This document shows, one piece after another, positions 25,109-62,193 of a DNA stretch of 64,000 nucleotides. Both the position numbers and the translations under genes were made by a program. Location: positions 12,086 through 76,085 of the forward strand of contig CAVVUR010000016.1 in the NCBI GenBank assembly GCA_963751515.1, in the 5' to 3' direction. The stretch is from an uncultured delta proteobacterium. Its GTDB lineage: Bacteria; Desulfobacterota; WTBG01. Positions within the stretch are counted from its first letter, which is position 1; the number at the start of each line of letters is the position of its first letter. The notes below the pieces were generated by a model. The model saw only the letters and a list, made by a program, of their open reading frames with translations. It did no database searches and was not told the DNA's origin.

Positions 25109-27625
25109 TCATGGACATAGTGGACAGTCAGTCCGGTTAAATTCGTCCTTCATCATCACCAGGTCAGCAAGGTCGACACTGTTATCGTAGTTGCAATCAG
25201 CATTACAGGGGTTCGTTGCACAATCCGTTCTTAAGAAGTCCCGCTTCATTATGACGAGATCAGTAAGATTAACCTTGGTATCACTGTTACAGTCTGCATA
25301 ACATTCACAAGCATCACCACAGTTGTTGCCAGCCGGGGGATAGGAGTCTAATTGTTCTGGGTTGGGTATGTTAGGGCAGTTGTCACAGACAACATCAACA
25401 CCGTCACCATCCGGGTCTATAGTATCCAGGTCACAAATGTCTCCTGTTCCGTTATTATCACAGTCAATTTGAAGTGGATTATAGTCATTAGGACAGTTAT
25501 CACAGCAATCCCCTAAACCATCGTCATCTACATCATATTGATCCGGATTGGGTGTGGCGGGGCAATTATCACAAACATCACCCACGTCATCTTCATCGGC
25601 ATCAGTTTGGTCTGGGTTAGCAATATTTAAGCAGTTGTCCACCTGATTATAGACACCGTCGCAGTCATTATCGCAATTGACCCCTTCCTCGCAATTGGTG
25701 AACACGTCGCAGGTGTTGCCGACTCCATCGCAATCTCCATCTTCCTGATCCGGATTATGGTGAACGGGACAGTTATCGCAGGCATTGCCGTGGGAATCGC
25801 TGTCACTATCCTCCTGCCCGGGATTGGGGGCTGCAGGACAATTATCCACAATATCCGGTAGCCCATCGCCATCACTATCAGCTCCGCAATAAGCATCCCA
25901 GCCCCCATCTGCAGATGAATAATCAGAATAGTGAGGCACCGCACAGGAATAACCATAGGACCATGAGCCATCTTGACACACATCTTCAGAAACCCCACCA
26001 AAAATACAAATGGAGTCATAGTCTTTATAACATGAATTGATATAGTCTTCGGGTTCACCCCCCATCATTAAAACAAATGCCTGGTGCGCTGCTTGTTGCG
26101 TTCTTGACAGTTCTTCCGTTGGTGACCATCCTGCTTTATGAGGCGGAGGGCATGACGAACAGGTAGGTGGGTAGGTAAATTCAGTACATTCTGTACATGA
26201 GGCGCTGTCAGTCCACCATTTAATAATGCCGTTGTAGCAGGCATCACCTATACCGTCCGCATCACTATCTTCCTGGTTCGGGTTAACAACGGCAGGGCAG
26301 TTGTCATTGACATCCAGGATTCCATCATTGTCGTCATCATCATCACAGGCATCCCCGATCCCATCCCCATCCGTATCTCTCTGGTCAGGGTTAGTTGCAG
26401 CGGGACAATTGTCACACAAGTCTCCCAGCCCATCCTGATCCCCATTTTCCTGATACGGGTTAAAAAGGTAAGGACAGTTATCTATCTCACCGCACACCCC
26501 ATCTCCATCACTATCATTTTCGGGATCAATGAGACATTGGTCACACGCATCACCTATGCCATCGCCATCTAAATCCTCCTGATTGGGGTTATAGGTATTT
26601 GGACAGTTATCGCAGCCATCGGCTATAATATCTTCGTCCACATCCGATTGGTCCGGATTAAACACATAAGGGCAATTGTCATCCTGATCAAGAATACCGT
26701 CATTATCCCAATCCCCATCATAATGAAGGATGATGCCATCTTCACCCACGGCAAAAACATCCGTCCCTGAACTGCCCCCGATCCCATAGAGACCATTAAC
26801 GGTTCCACTGCTCATGCTAGACCAGATGTTCCCATCATAGTGAATGATGGTGCCACCTTCTCCCACCGCATAGACATCCGTCCCTGAACTGCCCCAGACA
26901 TCACTGAGAAATCTAGTTGTAGCGTCATCCATCTCCAACCAGATGTTCCCATCATAATGGAGGATGGTGTCACCCACGGCAAAGGCATCTGTTACCGAAC
27001 TGCCCCAGATACTGGGAACATACTTTGCGGTATCGTCTACCGACCAAGTACTCCCATCATAGTGTCGCATAGTTCCATATGCACCGACGGCATGGACATT
27101 TGTTCCCGAGCTGCCCCAGATATCATAAAGAACACGCGTCGTTTCACTATTCATAGCCGACCAGGTATTACCATCATAGTGAAGGATAGTGCCTTCGTCT
27201 CCCACAGCAAAGACATCCGTTCCCGAACTTCCCCAGACAGCATGGAGTCTCCCAGCTGTGCCGATGGTCATCTCAGACCATGTGTTTCCATCATAATGAA
27301 GGATGATGCCACCAAAATAACCACCCACCGCATAAACATCGGTTGGCGAGCTCCCCCAGACATCCAAAAGATACGCTGTGGTACCGATACCGATGGTCAT
27401 CTCAGACCATGTGTTTCCATCATAATGAAGGATGATGCCATTACCACCCAATTCGAACCCCACTGCGAACACATCAGTCCCAGAGCTGCCCCAGATTGCA
27501 TAAAGGTCATTTCCTTGCGGCAGCTGATTCTGCCTTTCCCAGCCCGCATATGAAGGTCTGGTCATTGCAAGCAGTAAAAATGAAATGAATATCAATGCCA
27601 TGATTGCACTGTAAAATCCTTTCAT
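25109..27625 (-). CDS. Large secreted protein: beta-propeller repeats + ~11 thrombospondin type-3 (DNCP…NPDQ.D.D.DG.GD.CD) calcium-binding repeats + C-terminal dockerin-like pair
   Basis: The signal peptide is [27 protein letters not shown]. Six to seven ~45-aa repeats follow the pattern '[13 protein letters not shown]…[12 protein letters not shown]'. I counted 11 DNC(P/L) motifs in the translation. The tail [20 protein letters not shown]…[20 protein letters not shown] is a dockerin type-I duplicated EF-hand. Confidence 0.8.
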
Positions 27626-35023: not shown

Positions 35024-35100
35024 GATTATCCTTTCTTGCGAAGATTTCAGCACCGGGCGCTTCCTATTTTATTAGCAGGCTGTTGCAAGTCACCCGTTTG

Positions 35101-35329
35101 CTTGCGTAGCTCAAGGGGTGGGGCTTTTGATGCCACAACAATGTGTCTTTACTCTTACGGCACGACCCGGAGCCTAACGACTCAAATCGCAGACAGGCAG
35201 CTTTGCAGAGGCTTCGATAGAGGCTGTTACTATGCGGGTCTGCAAACAAAGTTAGAAAGTCGCTGCCGTTCTACAGGCTCCGAATAATTTTGTTGTGGCT
35301 AAAAAGCCCCACCCCTTGAGCCACGCAAG
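35101..35329 (+). mobile_element. MITE-like element, family 1, copy A (~229 bp, ~40-bp terminal inverted repeats)
   Basis: The left end is cttgcgtagctcaaggggtggggcttttgatgccacaacaa. The right end is ttgttgtggctaaaaagccccaccccttgagccacgcaag, its near-perfect reverse complement. The whole element recurs inverted at 43288..43510. It has no coding capacity. Confidence 0.75.
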
Positions 35330-35703
35330 ATTTATCAGCCTGCACCACTACTTTTTCAACAACCTTCTATATAATAACATACTTAACAGCAGTCTGCAAA
35401 TAAATACCCGGCAAAAAATATTTGCTGTGTCGGCAGGAGCGCATTCATGCGCGATACATTCGCGGTTCAATCCGCTCCTGCCCGATCACACCGTGCTTGA
35501 TGCAGACCCGCAGCGGTGAACCCGCATGCATGCGGGGCCCTTTCGCAATACCCCGGGATTAGGTATTGACAATGGGCCTCCTTTCATGCTTAATAGGATG
35601 CTGCTATGCGGACGCGGTGTGCGAGCATGGCGGGAAGCTGAAGGAAGCGTCAGGGGACTCACTCATTGACAACCGGATACCTGGAAGGGAGAATGGTTCT
35701 GTA

Positions 35704-43252: not shown

Positions 43253-43510
43253 CTAGTGCAGTGCGTCATTGATTTCTTTATTTATATGTGGCTCAAGGGG
43301 GAGGGGCTTTTTAGCCACAACAAAATTATTCCGGAACCGGTAGAACGGCAGCGTCTCTCTAACTTTGTCCGACAGACCCGCATGGCAAAAGCCTGTATCG
43401 AAGCCTCTGCAAAGCTGCCTGTCTGCGATTTGCGTCGTAAGGCACCGGGTCGTGCCGTAAGCCTAAAGACACATTGTTGTGGCGTCAAAAGCCCCTCCCC
43501 TTTGAGCCAC
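43253..43510 (-). mobile_element. MITE-like element, family 1, copy B (core 43288..43510) plus 35-nt leader shared with copy C
   Basis: The core is the reverse complement of copy A with a handful of mismatches. The leader ctagtgcagtgcgtcattgatttctttatttata is repeated at 59388. Confidence 0.75.
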
Positions 43511-43589
43511 TGAACCTCTTCTACAGCATGCTATTCGCAACGCACAGGAGCCTTTCATACCTAAAGAAGTGTTTGACGCACTACAGTAG

Positions 43590-44330
43590 CTACCGCTCGG
43601 CCTTGCCCGGAGCCGTTTGTATAACCTCAACCATATCCTTCACTGCCTGCCGCATCCCTACCATGAGCGCCCGTGCAACGATACTGTGCCCGATGCTGAA
43701 TTCTTCGATCTCGGCAATGCCCAGCAGTTTTTTAATATTGAAGTAATTCAATCCGTGGCCGGCATTGACACCCAGCCCCAGCCGGGAGGCAAGTGCCGCG
43801 GCCCGCCGAATTCTCTGCAGTTCCTGCTGCTGCCGGAGGGGAGTTTTTGCCTCAGCGAAGCTGCCGGTATGTACCTCGATGTAATCCGCTCCCGCCTCCT
43901 TCTTCGCCGCTTTTACCTGGCGCGGGTCCGGATCCACAAACAGGCTCACCGCGATCCCGGCCTGCTGCAATGCCTTTACCGCCGACCGCACCGAGGTACG
44001 GTGGGTGACAACATCAAGGCCGCCTTCCGTGGTCAGCTCCTGGCGCTTCTCCGGTACCAGGGTGGCCATCTCCGGCTTGATCTGCCGGGCCTTGCTCACC
44101 ATCCCCGGTACCGCCGCCATCTCCAGGTTCAGCCTGGTCCGGACCGTTTCGCGCAGCAGCTCCAGGTCCCTGTCCTGAATGTGCCTTCTGTCCTCGCGCA
44201 GGTGCACGATGATGCCGTCACAGCCCCCCAGCTCTGCCAGCGCGGCGGCCACCACCGGGTCGGGCTCGTCACCTCTCCTGGCCTGCCTTACGGTTGCGAT
44301 ATGGTCAACATTCACCATTAGTCCAGCCAT
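43590..44330 (-). CDS. pdxJ: Pyridoxine 5'-phosphate synthase
   Basis: The sequence reads …VNVDHIATVRQARRGDEPDPV…HLREDRRHIQDRD…HAGHGLNY…. Confidence 0.9.
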   Translation of the reverse strand: MAGLMVNVDHIATVRQARRGDEPDPVVAAALAELGGCDGIIVHLREDRRHIQDRDLELLRETVRTRLNLEMAAVPGMVSKARQIKPEMATLVPEKRQELTTEGGLDVVTHRTSVRSAVKALQQAGIAVSLFVDPDPRQVKAAKKEAGADYIEVHTGSFAEAKTPLRQQQELQRIRRAAALASRLGLGVNAGHGLNYFNIKKLLGIAEIEEFSIGHSIVARALMVGMRQAVKDMVEVIQTAPGKAER

Positions 44331-47235: not shown

Positions 47236-47366
47236 CCTCAGGCTGTTCAAAAACATCCGGATGCAAGGCACGTCAAATCCTGAGGTATGAGGCGCACTAT
47301 CCGATACGCCGCAATGGCGAAGGATGAACGTGTAACCCAGGGGATGGGTGTTTTTTAACAGCCTGC
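47236..47366 (+). repeat. Intergenic repeat family 2, copy D (~130 bp, own terminal inverted repeat CAGGCTGTTCAAAAAC / GTTTTTTAACAGCCTG)
   Basis: It aligns over its full length, with scattered mismatches, to 59503..59631. It lies between ftsH and folP. Confidence 0.65.
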
Positions 47367-59387: not shown

Positions 59388-59498
59388 CTAGTGCAGTGCG
59401 TCATTGATTCCTTTATTTATATGTGGCTCACGGGAGGGGGCTTGTAACGCCACAACAAAATCATGCTGAACCGGTAGAACGGCAGCGTCTCTCTAACT
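59388..59498 (-). repeat. Family-1 MITE half-copy C (leader + one terminal repeat + ~50 nt of core)
   Basis: It is near-identical to 43253..43364 (ctagtgcagtgcgtcattgatt.ctttatttatatgtggctca.ggg…ccacaacaaaat.at.c.gaaccggtagaacggcagcgtctctctaact). Confidence 0.7.
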
Positions 59499-59502
59499 GG
59501 TT

Positions 59503-59631
59503 TTCAGGCTGTTCAAAAACCACCAGATGCAAGGCACGCGAAATCCTGAGGAATGAGGCTTACATACATGTACGCTGCAGTGACGAAGGATGAGCGTGTA
59601 ACGCAGGGGATGGGTGTTTTTCAACAGCCCG
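59503..59631 (+). repeat. Intergenic repeat family 2, copy C2, abutting the family-1 half-copy
   Basis: caggctgttcaaaaac…gatgcaaggcacg…aaatcctgagg.atgaggc…gaaggatga.cgtgtaac.caggggatgggtgtttttcaacagcc aligns to 47236..47366. It ends at the stop codon of the ABC permease gene. Confidence 0.65.
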
Positions 59632-61329
59632 CTAAACTTCCAGGCTTGAGAGTTGCTGAAGCCCCAGGCGCATGGGGAGAATGGCCACAAGCGCATTCAG
59701 CAACGCGGCGGCCGTAAGCAGGCCGGCGATCTCGGTCCGTTCCCAGCCGGTCAGGGGCAAACCCCTGAATTGAGCCATGAAGAAGAGGTAGACCGGCCGC
59801 GCCTCCAGCACCACCATCAGCCCTATAAACAGCACCGCCACGATCATGTAAAACATGCCGCCGAAACCCGTGGCCACCTGCGATACGTTTTCCGCGTTGA
59901 AGCGGGGGAACCGGGCGCCGCACCCCATGCCCAGGCTGGTAATGCCAAAGGTCATTCCCGCAATGCTCAACACCGAGAGCCACTGCATGAAAGGGGCCGC
60001 GTTCATCAGCAGATTGGTGGTGATGATGAGCAGTTCGGCCGGAATGAGCAGAAAGAAGAAATTGACCCAGAACTTGCTCCAGAGCACCGTGCGCAACTCC
60101 AGAGGCGACGACTTGAGGATCCAGAAGGATTTTCCCTCGATGCTTACGCCGGGAAAGGTAAACCGCCCGGCGATAGCGGCAATCACAAATGCCGCCAGTC
60201 CCAGATTAAGGAAGGCAATGACATTCTGCAGATAGAATGTGGGAAGCGGCGAGCGCTCCATGGGAAGGACGCTGAAATTATACACGTAGATAACGATCAG
60301 CGCCCCGATCAGGAAGAGCTGCGTCCACTGGTTGGTGTCCCGCAGAAAAAGCTTCAGATCCTTGAGAATGATGACGCGGACCGCCGGGGAAAGCGGATTC
60401 AGCAACCATTCAAGAGCGCGGTTGAACAGTGTTGACCGGGAAAAGCGGGCGGTTCTGGCCTCCTGGGCCTTTGACCAGGCGTCAACGTAGTGGCGCTTGA
60501 AGACCCATTCGCCCATGACCGCGAAGGCCAAACCGGTGCTCCAGAGCAGCATGACCGGGAATGGCGACCAGCGCGCGGTATCAAAAAGAAAAGGGGCCAG
60601 GCCGTCGGCCGCCCACTGGCTGGGGAAAAAGGGAGAGGTGGGTGTTCGTAAATTGCTGACATAATCCATCATCAGGTAAAAGCTCTCCGGGTCCACCAGC
60701 CGCTCGGGCTGAAGGAAGCGGATGAAGAGAAACACCCCCACCACAATCAGGATGAAGGCAAACACGATGATCTCCTTCAGGCGGCGCGCGGGAACGAGGG
60801 AGACCAGAAGCAGGATGAGCACGGTTGCTGCCGCGGCAGGGATGAGCACAAAGGGGATGATCACCCCCGCCAGGGCAAGATAATAAGCGAACGAGGCATG
60901 GTATACCAGGCCGTAGGCGAGGAAGACGGGCGAGCTGAAGAAAAGCACCGTCCAGGAGCTGCTGATCACGGTTTCAAGAAACCGGCCGGCATAGAGGCCG
61001 GTGGCGGAAACGGGCATCGCGTTGAGCAGCTGCAGGTCGTCCGACAAAAAATAGGTGGAAAGCGCGGTGATGGTATTACTGAAGAGCAGCAGTGAGAAGC
61101 AGGTGAGAAAGACCATGGAGAGCAGCTTGGCGGCGAGAAGGGTCCCGATGACCTCGATGCCGGCAAAGTAGCCCAGCACCCGGTAAAATATGTAAAAGGT
61201 CCCGGCCCAGAAGAGCATCGCGGCGGCAGAAAAAATAATCACGCGAACCAGCTTCCTGCTCCCCGCATCCCTTGAGCTGTTCCGGTAAGAAAGTACTTTT
61301 GCCGCAAGCAGCAGTAGGGTTTCACCCAT
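59632..61329 (-). CDS. Polytopic membrane protein, putative ABC-exporter permease (565 aa, ~12+ TM)
   Basis: It is hydrophobic throughout and sits directly downstream of the ABC ATPase gene. No further family assignment is possible by eye. Confidence 0.6.
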   Translation of the reverse strand: MGETLLLLAAKVLSYRNSSRDAGSRKLVRVIIFSAAAMLFWAGTFYIFYRVLGYFAGIEVIGTLLAAKLLSMVFLTCFSLLLFSNTITALSTYFLSDDLQLLNAMPVSATGLYAGRFLETVISSSWTVLFFSSPVFLAYGLVYHASFAYYLALAGVIIPFVLIPAAAATVLILLLVSLVPARRLKEIIVFAFILIVVGVFLFIRFLQPERLVDPESFYLMMDYVSNLRTPTSPFFPSQWAADGLAPFLFDTARWSPFPVMLLWSTGLAFAVMGEWVFKRHYVDAWSKAQEARTARFSRSTLFNRALEWLLNPLSPAVRVIILKDLKLFLRDTNQWTQLFLIGALIVIYVYNFSVLPMERSPLPTFYLQNVIAFLNLGLAAFVIAAIAGRFTFPGVSIEGKSFWILKSSPLELRTVLWSKFWVNFFFLLIPAELLIITTNLLMNAAPFMQWLSVLSIAGMTFGITSLGMGCGARFPRFNAENVSQVATGFGGMFYMIVAVLFIGLMVVLEARPVYLFFMAQFRGLPLTGWERTEIAGLLTAAALLNALVAILPMRLGLQQLSSLEV

Positions 61330-61348
61330 GCCCGTGATCTCCTTAGAC

Positions 61349-61433
61349 GGTTGTTAAAAAAACCCATCTGATTTGCGTCTCAAAGGGGGAGGGGCTTTTG
61401 AACAGCCTGAAGAAAACACTTTTTCAACAACCG
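61349..61433. repeat. Composite repeat remnant E (family-2-like end + solo family-1 terminal repeat + cagcctg…ctttttcaacaacc motif)
   Basis: ggttgttaaaaaaaccc … ttgcgtctcaaagggggaggggctttt gaacagcctgaagaaaacactttttcaacaacc. The last part also flanks copy A (35336-35365). It fills the whole ATPase-permease spacer. Confidence 0.5.
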
Positions 61434-61434
61434 G

Positions 61435-62193
61435 TCAGAACTGCATCGAATCCGCCAGACGGCGCTCTTCCTCTCCCCCGGTAAGCTTGAAAAAGAGGGT
61501 TTCCAGCTTAACCCCCTCGCTGCCCGCCTTTTGCCTGAGCTCACCGATCGTGCCCGACGCCACAATCCGGCCTCCGTGAATGATGGCAATGCGGTCGCAG
61601 ACCTCCTCCGCCACTTCCAGGGTATGGGTGGACATGAAAACCGCCCCCCCACGCGAGGCAAAGCTTCGGAACACCTCTTTTACCAGCCGGGCACCGGCCG
61701 GATCCAGCCCCACCATGGGCTCATCCACAATGATTATTTTGGGCTGGTGCAGGAACGCGGATATCATCACCAGCCGCTGCTTCATGCCATGAGAAAAACT
61801 TTCAATCAGCTCGTCCTTCCACTCCTCGATGCCGAACAGCCGTAAAAGCGCCGTCATACGCTCATCGGTTTCATTGGCTGCGCAGCCGTAAAGCCCGGCA
61901 AGAAAACGGAGGAATTCACGCGCGGTCAGCTTTTCATAGAGAAACGGCCGGTCGGGAATGAACCCCACCGCCTTTTTCGCCTCCAGCGGGTGCTCCTCCA
62001 GGTCCCACCCGTCAATGATCACCTGCCCGCTGCTGGGCTTGATCAGGCCCGCCAGCATCTTGATGGTGGTGGTCTTCCCCGCCCCGTTCGGGCCCAGGAA
62101 ACCGAAAATCTCCCCCCGCTTCACCTCCAGGGAAACGCCGTCGACGGCAATGAGATTGCCGAACCGCTTTGAAAGCTCGCGCAGCTGCATCAT
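61435..62193 (-). CDS. ABC transporter ATP-binding protein
   Basis: The motifs are Walker A GPNGAGKTT, signature FSHGMKQR, Walker B IIIVDEP and an H-loop MSTH. Confidence 0.9.
   Translation of the reverse strand: MMQLRELSKRFGNLIAVDGVSLEVKRGEIFGFLGPNGAGKTTTIKMLAGLIKPSSGQVIIDGWDLEEHPLEAKKAVGFIPDRPFLYEKLTAREFLRFLAGLYGCAANETDERMTALLRLFGIEEWKDELIESFSHGMKQRLVMISAFLHQPKIIIVDEPMVGLDPAGARLVKEVFRSFASRGGAVFMSTHTLEVAEEVCDRIAIIHGGRIVASGTIGELRQKAGSEGVKLETLFFKLTGGEEERRLADSMQF

Follow-up and report, generated by a model that had tools for sequence, protein, structure and literature searches.

The 64-kb window analysed here, by which we mean the whole stretch C16:12086-76085 of the host assembly G000, comes from an uncultured Thermodesulfobacteriota MAG of 2.96 Mb (18 contigs, 53% G+C, 74% complete). 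Four of its short spacers between housekeeping genes hold all or part of F1, a 223-nt non-coding repeat of ~53% G+C in which 37-nt inverted ends enclose a 150-nt asymmetric core; the consensus of the terminal arm (~37 nt) is GTGGCTCAAGGGGGAGGGGCTTTTGACGCCACAACAA. The spacer between the AAA+ ATPase and TPR genes contains copy A (35101-35329, plus strand), whose 223-nt core unit at 35106-35324 is extended by five extra paired nucleotides on each side, and the spacer between nnr and pdxJ contains copy B (43288-43510, minus strand), the reference copy for the family. The two lie in opposite orientation and are 90% identical across 223 nt, and the arms of each are 96% complementary. An initial annotation, made from the letters of the DNA alone, had given these coordinates exactly, with terminal inverted repeats (TIRs) of ~35-40 bp that we place at ~37 nt, and had named the same gene neighbourhoods. 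It had also reported a half-copy at 59388-59498, in the spacer between the CIA30 and ABC_tran_2 genes, and a solo end at 61375-61400, in the spacer between the ABC_tran_2 and ABC ATPase genes. Both are real, and both include parts of other repeats: the first is a truncated composite (59392-59498, minus strand) in which the short arm of a shell that we call S1 (59392-59423) is followed by the right-hand 75 nt of F1 (59424-59498), with CTAG at 59388-59391, and the second is a single F1 left arm (61375-61401) within a degenerate shell of a second type, S2 (61347-61434, plus strand). Elsewhere in the window, tandem direct repeats of 69-117 nt, belonging to several families, occupy one stretch (25430-27500), which is most likely a long gene of repeated domains.

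When copy B was used as a blastn query against the whole G000 assembly, 88 full copies (at least 200 nt) were found on 16 of the 18 contigs, at a median identity to copy B of 92%, together with many half-copies and solo arms, a number well in excess of what chance would give. The outcome that the initial annotation had named as a refutation, local copies and no others, is therefore not what the search showed. This is what the initial annotation had anticipated in proposing a multi-copy mobile family, for which it had called for just such a genome-wide search. The opposite reading, a local segmental duplication of sequences that form no mobile family, had nothing beyond the first observation of two copies to recommend it and is refuted by the findings that the 88 copies have unrelated flanking genes, that tens of copies exist in each of three sister species of the same genus (G001, 98% complete, G002 and G003) with further copies in other families of the class, and that presence or absence differs at orthologous sites. 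A covariance model built from an alignment of diverse F1 members detected the family in nine of 42 genomes of the class, namely the four species of the genus with their tens of copies each, the sister genus G009, and four members of family f4 (G013, G029, G031 and G035); the same model found none in ~360 genomes that represent the phylum outside this class.

F1 lies within larger inverted-repeat elements

The sequences that flank F1 are repeats themselves, and they fall into recurrent shell classes, each with TIRs of its own (11-19 nt), that together with F1 make up composites of 291-336 nt. Shell S1 (flank class L1/R1) occurs in 27 copies, among them the one around copy B, and has the arrangement CTAG-TGTAGTGCGTCCAAC...GAAGAGGTTCA / F1 / ATATAAATAAAGGAATCAATGACGCACTACA-CTAG with the TIR TGTAGTGCGTC; no S1 shell without F1 was found in G000. 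Shell S2/R2, in 25 copies, reads CTAG-CAGGYTGTTGAAAAACACCCATCTGATTT / F1 / TGAACAGCCTGAGGAAAACTACTTTTTCAACAACCTG-CTAG, and S2/R3 (11 copies, including the one around copy A; flank class L2/R3) combines the left arm of S2/R2 with a different right arm. In the window, composite A, an S2-type shell around F1, spans 35076-35366 (plus strand) from its left arm CAGGCTGTTGCAAGTCACCCGTTTGCTTGC to its right arm ...ATTTATCAGCCTGCACCACTACTTTTTCAACAACCTT, and is flanked by TTAG (35072-35075) and CTAT (35367-35370), whereas composite B, an S1 shell around F1 with the TIR TGTAGTGCGTC..., spans 43257-43585 (minus strand) between CTAG (43253-43256) and GTAG (43586-43589) and follows immediately on the stop of pdxJ (43590-43592, CTA in plus-strand letters). 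Because each full copy described above sits inside a larger repeat with its own TIRs and CTAG-type flanks, the ends named in the initial annotation are internal ones. Its view of F1 as a miniature inverted-repeat element (MITE) was right in that the repeat is non-coding, non-autonomous and mobile; the part that has to be given up is that the element is bounded by the TIRs of the ~225-bp unit, as the inserted units are composites of 291 nt and 329 nt.

A stand-alone relative of shell S2, the 125-127-nt element F2, is present in ~40 copies in G000 and shares with S2 the TIR CAGGYTGTTGAAAAAC; one of its ends carries a tandem second copy of the TIR after a 10-nt spacer. The window has two F2 elements, both on the plus strand, one at 47239-47365 and the other, with the TIR of shell S2 (CAGGCTGTTCAAAAAC), at 59505-59631, where its end adjoins the TAG stop (CTA at 59632-59634) of the ABC_tran_2 gene. 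F2 is also nested in nine full F1 copies at a fixed site near F1 position 150, forming F1+F2 composites that have been amplified. It is at this recurrent nesting site, with F2 59505-59631 nested there, that the half-copy in the window breaks off, and the half-copy may well be a decay product created by the nesting of this second element. The solo arm would be a decay product of another sort. Its shell, with TTAG at 61343-61346 on one side and the TGA stop of the ABC ATPase gene (TCA at 61435-61437) on the other, is one of ~15 S2 shells of 63-118 nt across G000 that retain only one F1 arm, and such a deletion derivative probably arose by internal deletion between short direct repeats. Rearrangement of a different kind is seen outside the window, where two S2 composites (C2:29165 and C16:134229) have the asymmetric F1 core inverted relative to the shell, as recombination between the long inverted arms of F1 would yield.

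The composites are ~90% identical pairwise, with a maximum of 97%, and the identity of F1 between shell classes (0.89-0.91) is close to that within classes (0.91-0.92). A maximum-likelihood tree of F1 in G000 needs 12 shell-label switches where two would suffice, and its well-supported branches force at least three to four switches for each of the larger classes, S1 and S2/R2. Hybrid shells, such as those at C3:369804 and C15:66392 outside the window, are evidence for recombination between shell types: in these the S2 TIR CTAGCAGGCTGTTGAA passes without a gap into the S1 long arm at its inner end, GAAGAGGTTCA, and the right arm is that of S1. Intermixed lineages and hybrid shells together indicate either that the modules recombine or that F1 has been captured repeatedly, and the intermixing makes a single capture followed by amplification too simple a picture.

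The F1 core is ~70% conserved between two bacterial families, yet it is found in five unrelated shells, those of the other lineages reading CAGGACTTTCCCCAAAATT... (G035 and G013), GGTCTTCTCCCAMTCAAGTGGGTA... (G031) and CTAGCCAAACATATTTGAAATTTTACAG... (G009). The outer stem of F1 varies between subfamilies yet remains complementary, and the inner arms GCCACAACAA/TTGTTGTGGC and blocks within the core are invariant, so that the interior is more conserved than the ends, the reverse of ordinary MITE families. An alternative has to be weighed here: F1 might be an independently mobile hairpin of the REPIN type, moved as single-stranded DNA by a Y1/HUH or similar enzyme without target duplication, and repeatedly entering palindromic MITE shells that would then be its targets and not its carriers. 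A variable but complementary outer stem, invariant inner-arm motifs, occurrence in five unrelated shells and also outside any shell, and lineages that intermix between shells all speak for it, although the hybrid shells show that recombination between composites can account for the intermixing as well.

Composites have YTAR flanks

In TIR orientation, the tetranucleotides outside S2-type ends are CTAG (75), TTAG (32) and CTAA (22), that is, YTAR, and some S2-type elements have paired flanks of TTAG/TTAG or CTAA/CTAA. Elements of the IS5 type make a 4-bp duplication of YTAR and those of the IS630 type duplicate TA. At the palindromic CTAG, a 4-bp YTAR duplication is indistinguishable from a TA duplication inside CTAG; a 4-bp duplication at a non-palindromic site, on the other hand, predicts the near balance of CTAA and TTAG. 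Many shell ends fall on a stop codon (TAG, TAA or TGA) of the adjacent gene, in the window those of pdxJ and of the ABC_tran_2 and ABC ATPase genes.

We compared orthologous sites for the two window copies and for nine F1 copies without a shell. At the site of copy B, the flanks match G001 up to query position 755 and again from position 1090, in blocks that are 92-94% identical and lie 1 nt apart in G001, so that the junction ...CCTCAGC-CTCG-CTGCC... in G001 corresponds to ...CCTCAGC-CTAG-[329 nt]-GTAG-CTACC... in G000; composite B is also absent in G003. The whole of the 291-nt composite A is missing from the orthologous spacers of G001 and G003, where the spacer is too diverged for a base-precise junction. 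That composites are missing whole at the sister sites means that the inserted units are the composites and not F1 alone. Both window composites were probably inserted after the split from the sister species, and their absence at the sister sites bears out the mobility that the initial annotation had proposed.

Two further observations concern these sites. In G000 the TAG stop of pdxJ is right at the insertion (43586-43592), whereas in G001 (C1 ~492853) the frame runs three codons longer (Q-R-G) to a TGA, and from this difference in the end of pdxJ it follows that the region of the insertion site and the stop codon differ between the species. To the right of copy A, at ~35410-35525, lies a further short repeat that the orthologous spacers of G001 and G003 do not have, although it has dozens of 50-90-nt matches elsewhere in those two genomes; it is probably another small mobile repeat family.

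There are about a dozen bare copies of F1, divergent (68-84% identity), with unique flanks and no duplication, and a target-site duplication of F1 proper, which the initial annotation had suggested looking for, was found in no context. At C13:172084, G001 retains at the same position a 30-nt solo hairpin, GCGGCTCAAAAGCCCCTCCCCTTGAGCCAC, such as would be left if F1 had lost, by deletion, the stretch between its GTGGC direct repeats (positions 1-5 and 192-196). At C13:142980 only right-arm stubs are left in G001 and G003, and at C17:120854 the relatives are without F1 and without some flanking bases. When the joined flanks of the nine bare copies were compared with the three sister genomes and the best sites were read, neither a clean gain of F1 alone nor a clean empty site was seen, only stubs or rearranged flanks. 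The stubs at the relatives' sites imply that the bare copies predate the species splits and decay in place to solo hairpins. For a REPIN-like F1 these results point in two directions: the absence of a target-site duplication in every context and the resemblance of solo hairpin remnants to REP singlets are as expected of it, but what counts against it is that no clean pair of an F1-only insertion and its empty site was found; those bare copies that we inspected are old, and stubs of them persist in the relatives.

Search for the mobilising enzyme

Three transposase families (DDE_3, Y1_Tnp and DDE_Tnp_1) were searched for throughout the genomes. None has a match in the window, in agreement with the initial annotation, which had found no transposase there and had reasoned that mobilisation must occur in trans. 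Its suggestion to look for an insertion sequence (IS) with matching TIRs did not lead to one: no IS with such ends was found in G000, nor a matching transposase at any of the elements. Pairs of F1, S1 or S2 TIRs at a distance of 450-4000 bp, and pairs of inner-arm motifs, were also examined in G000 as possible limits of an autonomous parent, and none encloses a transposase, the only long pairs enclosing ordinary genes. Nor is there, in this 74% complete assembly, a full-length IS with S1, S2 or F1 termini.

DDE_3, the transposase domain of the IS630 type, is absent from G000, G001 and G003 and is represented in G002 by one pseudogene without a matching TIR. An IS630/Tc1-mariner origin of the shells was rejected on these grounds, three of four genomes being without DDE_3, and because the balance of CTAA and TTAG fits a 4-bp duplication better.

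Y1 genes are more abundant: four intact RAYT-like genes and one pseudogene in G000, and several in each of the four genomes of the genus. That RAYT-like Y1 proteins occur in four of four genus genomes is a further point for a REPIN-like F1. However, none of the four intact Y1 genes of G000 is flanked by F1 arms, and no F1 arm was found beside any Y1 gene of that genome, so a cognate RAYT was discarded as a candidate; two of the four are flanked by unrelated 30-nt inverted repeats of their own and the other two are without flanking repeats. At two loci outside the window (C3:98167-99390 and C15:59803-60816), the RAYT-like Y1 homologs are ~300-400 aa long with a C-terminal helix-turn-helix-like tail, and each has its own inverted 30-nt repeats (TTTGTCCAATGTCAAGGGCTGACCCCAATG and TAATTCCACTTAGTCAACAACGTCCCCAAAT), of which there are 5-8 copies genome-wide; these loci have the look of classic REP/RAYT pairs and show no relation to F1.

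The DDE_Tnp_1 transposases of G000 belong to three IS families, ISa, ISb and ISc, and the ends of none match the repeats. ISa, with the TIR CAGTAGTGTCCCAACG and a 9-bp target-site duplication, is not cognate, and neither is ISb, which targets hairpins and makes ~28-nt duplications. In ISc the transposase is a truncated member of the IS5 family (NF033578, E = 2e-95) and the ends, TAGTCGATCC..., are not cognate either; 46 relatives in other genomes are without shell-type TIRs; the full-length relatives in other Desulfobacterota have the ends TAGTCGGTCCTGAAAAAGC, which are S2-TIR-like in form (...TGAAAAA...) but again not cognate. In G001, although it is 98% complete, and in G002 there is no DDE_Tnp_1 match at all, though dozens of F1-family copies are present. 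An IS5-type enzyme acting in trans is the candidate to which the YTAR target best points, and it may have been lost or may reside on unassembled or extrachromosomal DNA.

Two IS elements of G000 outside the window, encountered in the course of this search, deserve mention for their own sake. One, 1.3 kb long, exists in three identical copies (C10:197989, C13:30838 and C18:61502) with the TIR CAGTAGTGTCCCAACGTT and 9-bp target duplications; its end has GTAGTG..TCC.AAC in common with the TIR of shell S1, whereas the length of the duplication differs. The other, an 1813-bp element with a 495-aa DDE_Tnp_1 frame, is present six times (at C2:56982, C15:128715, C16:294292, C17:76832 and two further sites). 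We read the ends of four copies, and all four are inserted in palindromic terminator-like hairpins, a different one each time, of which ~26-30 nt are duplicated; such behaviour is IS1182-like.

F1 as a coding, RNA or regulatory sequence

A peptide gene was ruled out by closed frames and missing codon periodicity: no anchored frame (minimum 18-23 codons) is open across copies, and the substitutions have no codon 3-periodicity. F1 folds into a very stable structure on both strands (z = -8.6 and -7.7; -114 kcal/mol for the RNA fold of copy B, with z = -8.6), and this stability is due to the 37-nt arms. No Rfam match to F1 was obtained at gathering or at permissive thresholds, even at E <= 10. In RNAalifold on 29 diverse F1 members and in an all-pairs covariation scan of 51 members from six genomes, compensatory change was limited to the terminal stem, and the internal helices were invariant columns. 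A targeted test for a pseudoknot did detect one internal switch, in that every copy with GACCCG has CGGGTC and every copy with GACCCC has GGGGTC; the GACCCG/CGGGTC pair is interleaved with an invariant GGCAG/CTGCC pair, and the two together would make a pseudoknot. The switch is a single clade-linked evolutionary event. With no Rfam family, covariation in the terminal stem only and just this one internal switch, the idea of F1 as a structured RNA was set aside.

Between co-directional genes F1 shows no orientation bias (24 copies in the same and 35 in the opposite direction), and its distribution over co-directional, convergent and divergent spacers (59/13/10) is like the genomic background (1664/367/370). 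The two window copies contain no terminator-like site, and promoter-like sites are not in excess of background. The suggestion in the initial annotation that these elements might be structured RNAs or transcription attenuators is thus not borne out by the Rfam search, the covariation, the search for terminator-like signals or the orientation of the copies.

These data also bear on the reading that the F1 core has a selectively maintained function, whether as a structured RNA, as a signal for attenuation or mRNA processing, or as a platform to which host factors bind, and that its copy number reflects domestication and not selfish spread. We regard this as quite improbable. A core with ~70% identity across two bacterial families in spite of unrelated shells and termini, the very stable fold on both strands, and the compensatory switch of GACCCG:CGGGTC versus GACCCC:GGGGTC, interleaved with GGCAG:CTGCC, would be in keeping with it. 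But the lack of any Rfam match, the restriction of covariation to the terminal stem, the fact that the sole internal switch is one event, the lack of orientation bias relative to host genes or of any context bias, the absence of terminator-like and of enriched promoter-like signals, and the free truncation of copies and their loss between species all argue the other way.

Discussion

The evidence presented here leads us to view F1, with a probability of roughly 0.7, as a non-coding hairpin-armed module that in this genus multiplies mainly as a passenger in composite miniature inverted-repeat elements with YTAR-targeting shells. Under such a scheme, shells S1 and S2/F2 would carry the ends recognised by a transposase supplied in trans, most likely one of the IS5 family, and the composites would insert at YTAR tetranucleotides, mostly CTAG; it is this targeting that would bring composites into short spacers, often directly on or after a stop codon. 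As the conserved inner module of mobile elements that have no transposase, F1 is selfish DNA of a known kind, nested MITEs, although of unusually modular build. The identity of the transposase, the first entry of F1 into shells and the reason for the conservation of its core are matters that we infer.

E. coli IS5 is the type for the YTAR/CTAG target rule and the 4-bp duplication. By analogy, the shells would seem to behave like IS5-derived MITEs: S1 and S2/F2 are short, non-coding, bounded by TIRs and flanked by CTAG, TTAG or CTAA, G000 contains the remnant of an IS5-family transposase, and the S2 TIR has the ...GTTGAAAAA... form of IS5-family ends, which we take to resemble the end of IS903. 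They differ in that one shell end has a tandem TIR pair and in that the shells enclose an independent inverted-repeat element, F1. The nearest IS5 relatives also differ, as their ends are TAGTCGGTCCTGAAAAAGC and their duplications are of 6-7 bp, beginning and ending in TA (TATATA, TAAATA, TAGATTA).

REPINs, which consist of two ~25-nt REPs and a short spacer and measure ~100 nt, owe their mobility to Y1 transposases of the RAYT type (Bertels & Rainey 2011; PMC3116915, PMC3337134). F1 shares with them the hairpin-forming inverted arms, the lack of a target duplication, remnants like REP singlets, a position between genes and persistence through long vertical descent (PMC3116915, PMC3337134). 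It is unlike them in its length of 223 nt, twice the size of a REPIN, with a conserved 150-nt asymmetric core (PMC3116915), and unlike REPIN-RAYT systems, which are defined by a cognate RAYT gene with the repeat at its flanks, in that no RAYT gene is flanked by F1 arms while two carry other REP-like repeats. Weighing this with the insertion history above, we consider independent movement of F1 as a REPIN-like hairpin rather unlikely.

Among bacterial MITEs, Chunjie of Geobacter uraniireducens Rf4 (Chen et al. 2008, as reviewed in PMC3184786 and PMC10969869) offers another parallel. It shares with F1 a delta-proteobacterial-type host, a size of ~180-235 bp, tens of full and many partial copies, location within operons and very stable folds (-98 to -130 kcal/mol). 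Chunjie is rich in A+T, its TIRs are 21 bp long and its direct repeats 9 bp (PMC3184786, PMC10969869), whereas F1 is ~53% G+C, has arms of 37 nt, makes no duplication itself and lies nested within shells that target CTAG. The Correia elements of Neisseria, which duplicate TA and have proven functions with IHF, as promoters and with RNase III (PMC2649163), and the mosaic BIMEs of enterobacteria (PMC3184786) are, like F1, abundant intergenic inverted repeats with a conserved core and a modular or mosaic build that could form long double-stranded RNA if co-transcribed (PMC2649163, PMC3184786). The analogy with these is functional only, as their sequences are unrelated to F1 and their hosts belong to another phylum.

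The conservation of the F1 core across families is strong, and passive hitch-hiking does not explain it. It is tempting to speculate that selection maintains the 165-nt interior (GCCACAACAA...TTGTTGTGGC) as a functional module, such as a pseudoknotted RNA, a single-stranded-DNA structure or a binding platform for host or transposition factors, that has been captured repeatedly by unrelated MITE shells in two families, in which case the cargo outlives its vehicles; we hold this to be doubtful.

For the genomes of this lineage, the repeats have practical consequences. With ~90 full F1 copies and fragments, and ~40 F2 elements, that fill operon spacers and adjoin stop codons, annotation must reckon with repeats that are easily taken for regulatory RNAs, small ORFs or artefacts of assembly, and that probably cause contig breaks in short-read assemblies of the genus. 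For the biology of MITEs, the usual pattern is reversed, with an interior conserved across families, at least five exchanges of the mobilisation ends, and recombination of modules between shells. If the F1 core is functional, MITEs would here clearly be propagating a non-coding cargo, and if it is not, these genomes would provide a good natural system in which to study the persistence of nested non-autonomous elements where no transposase is resident.
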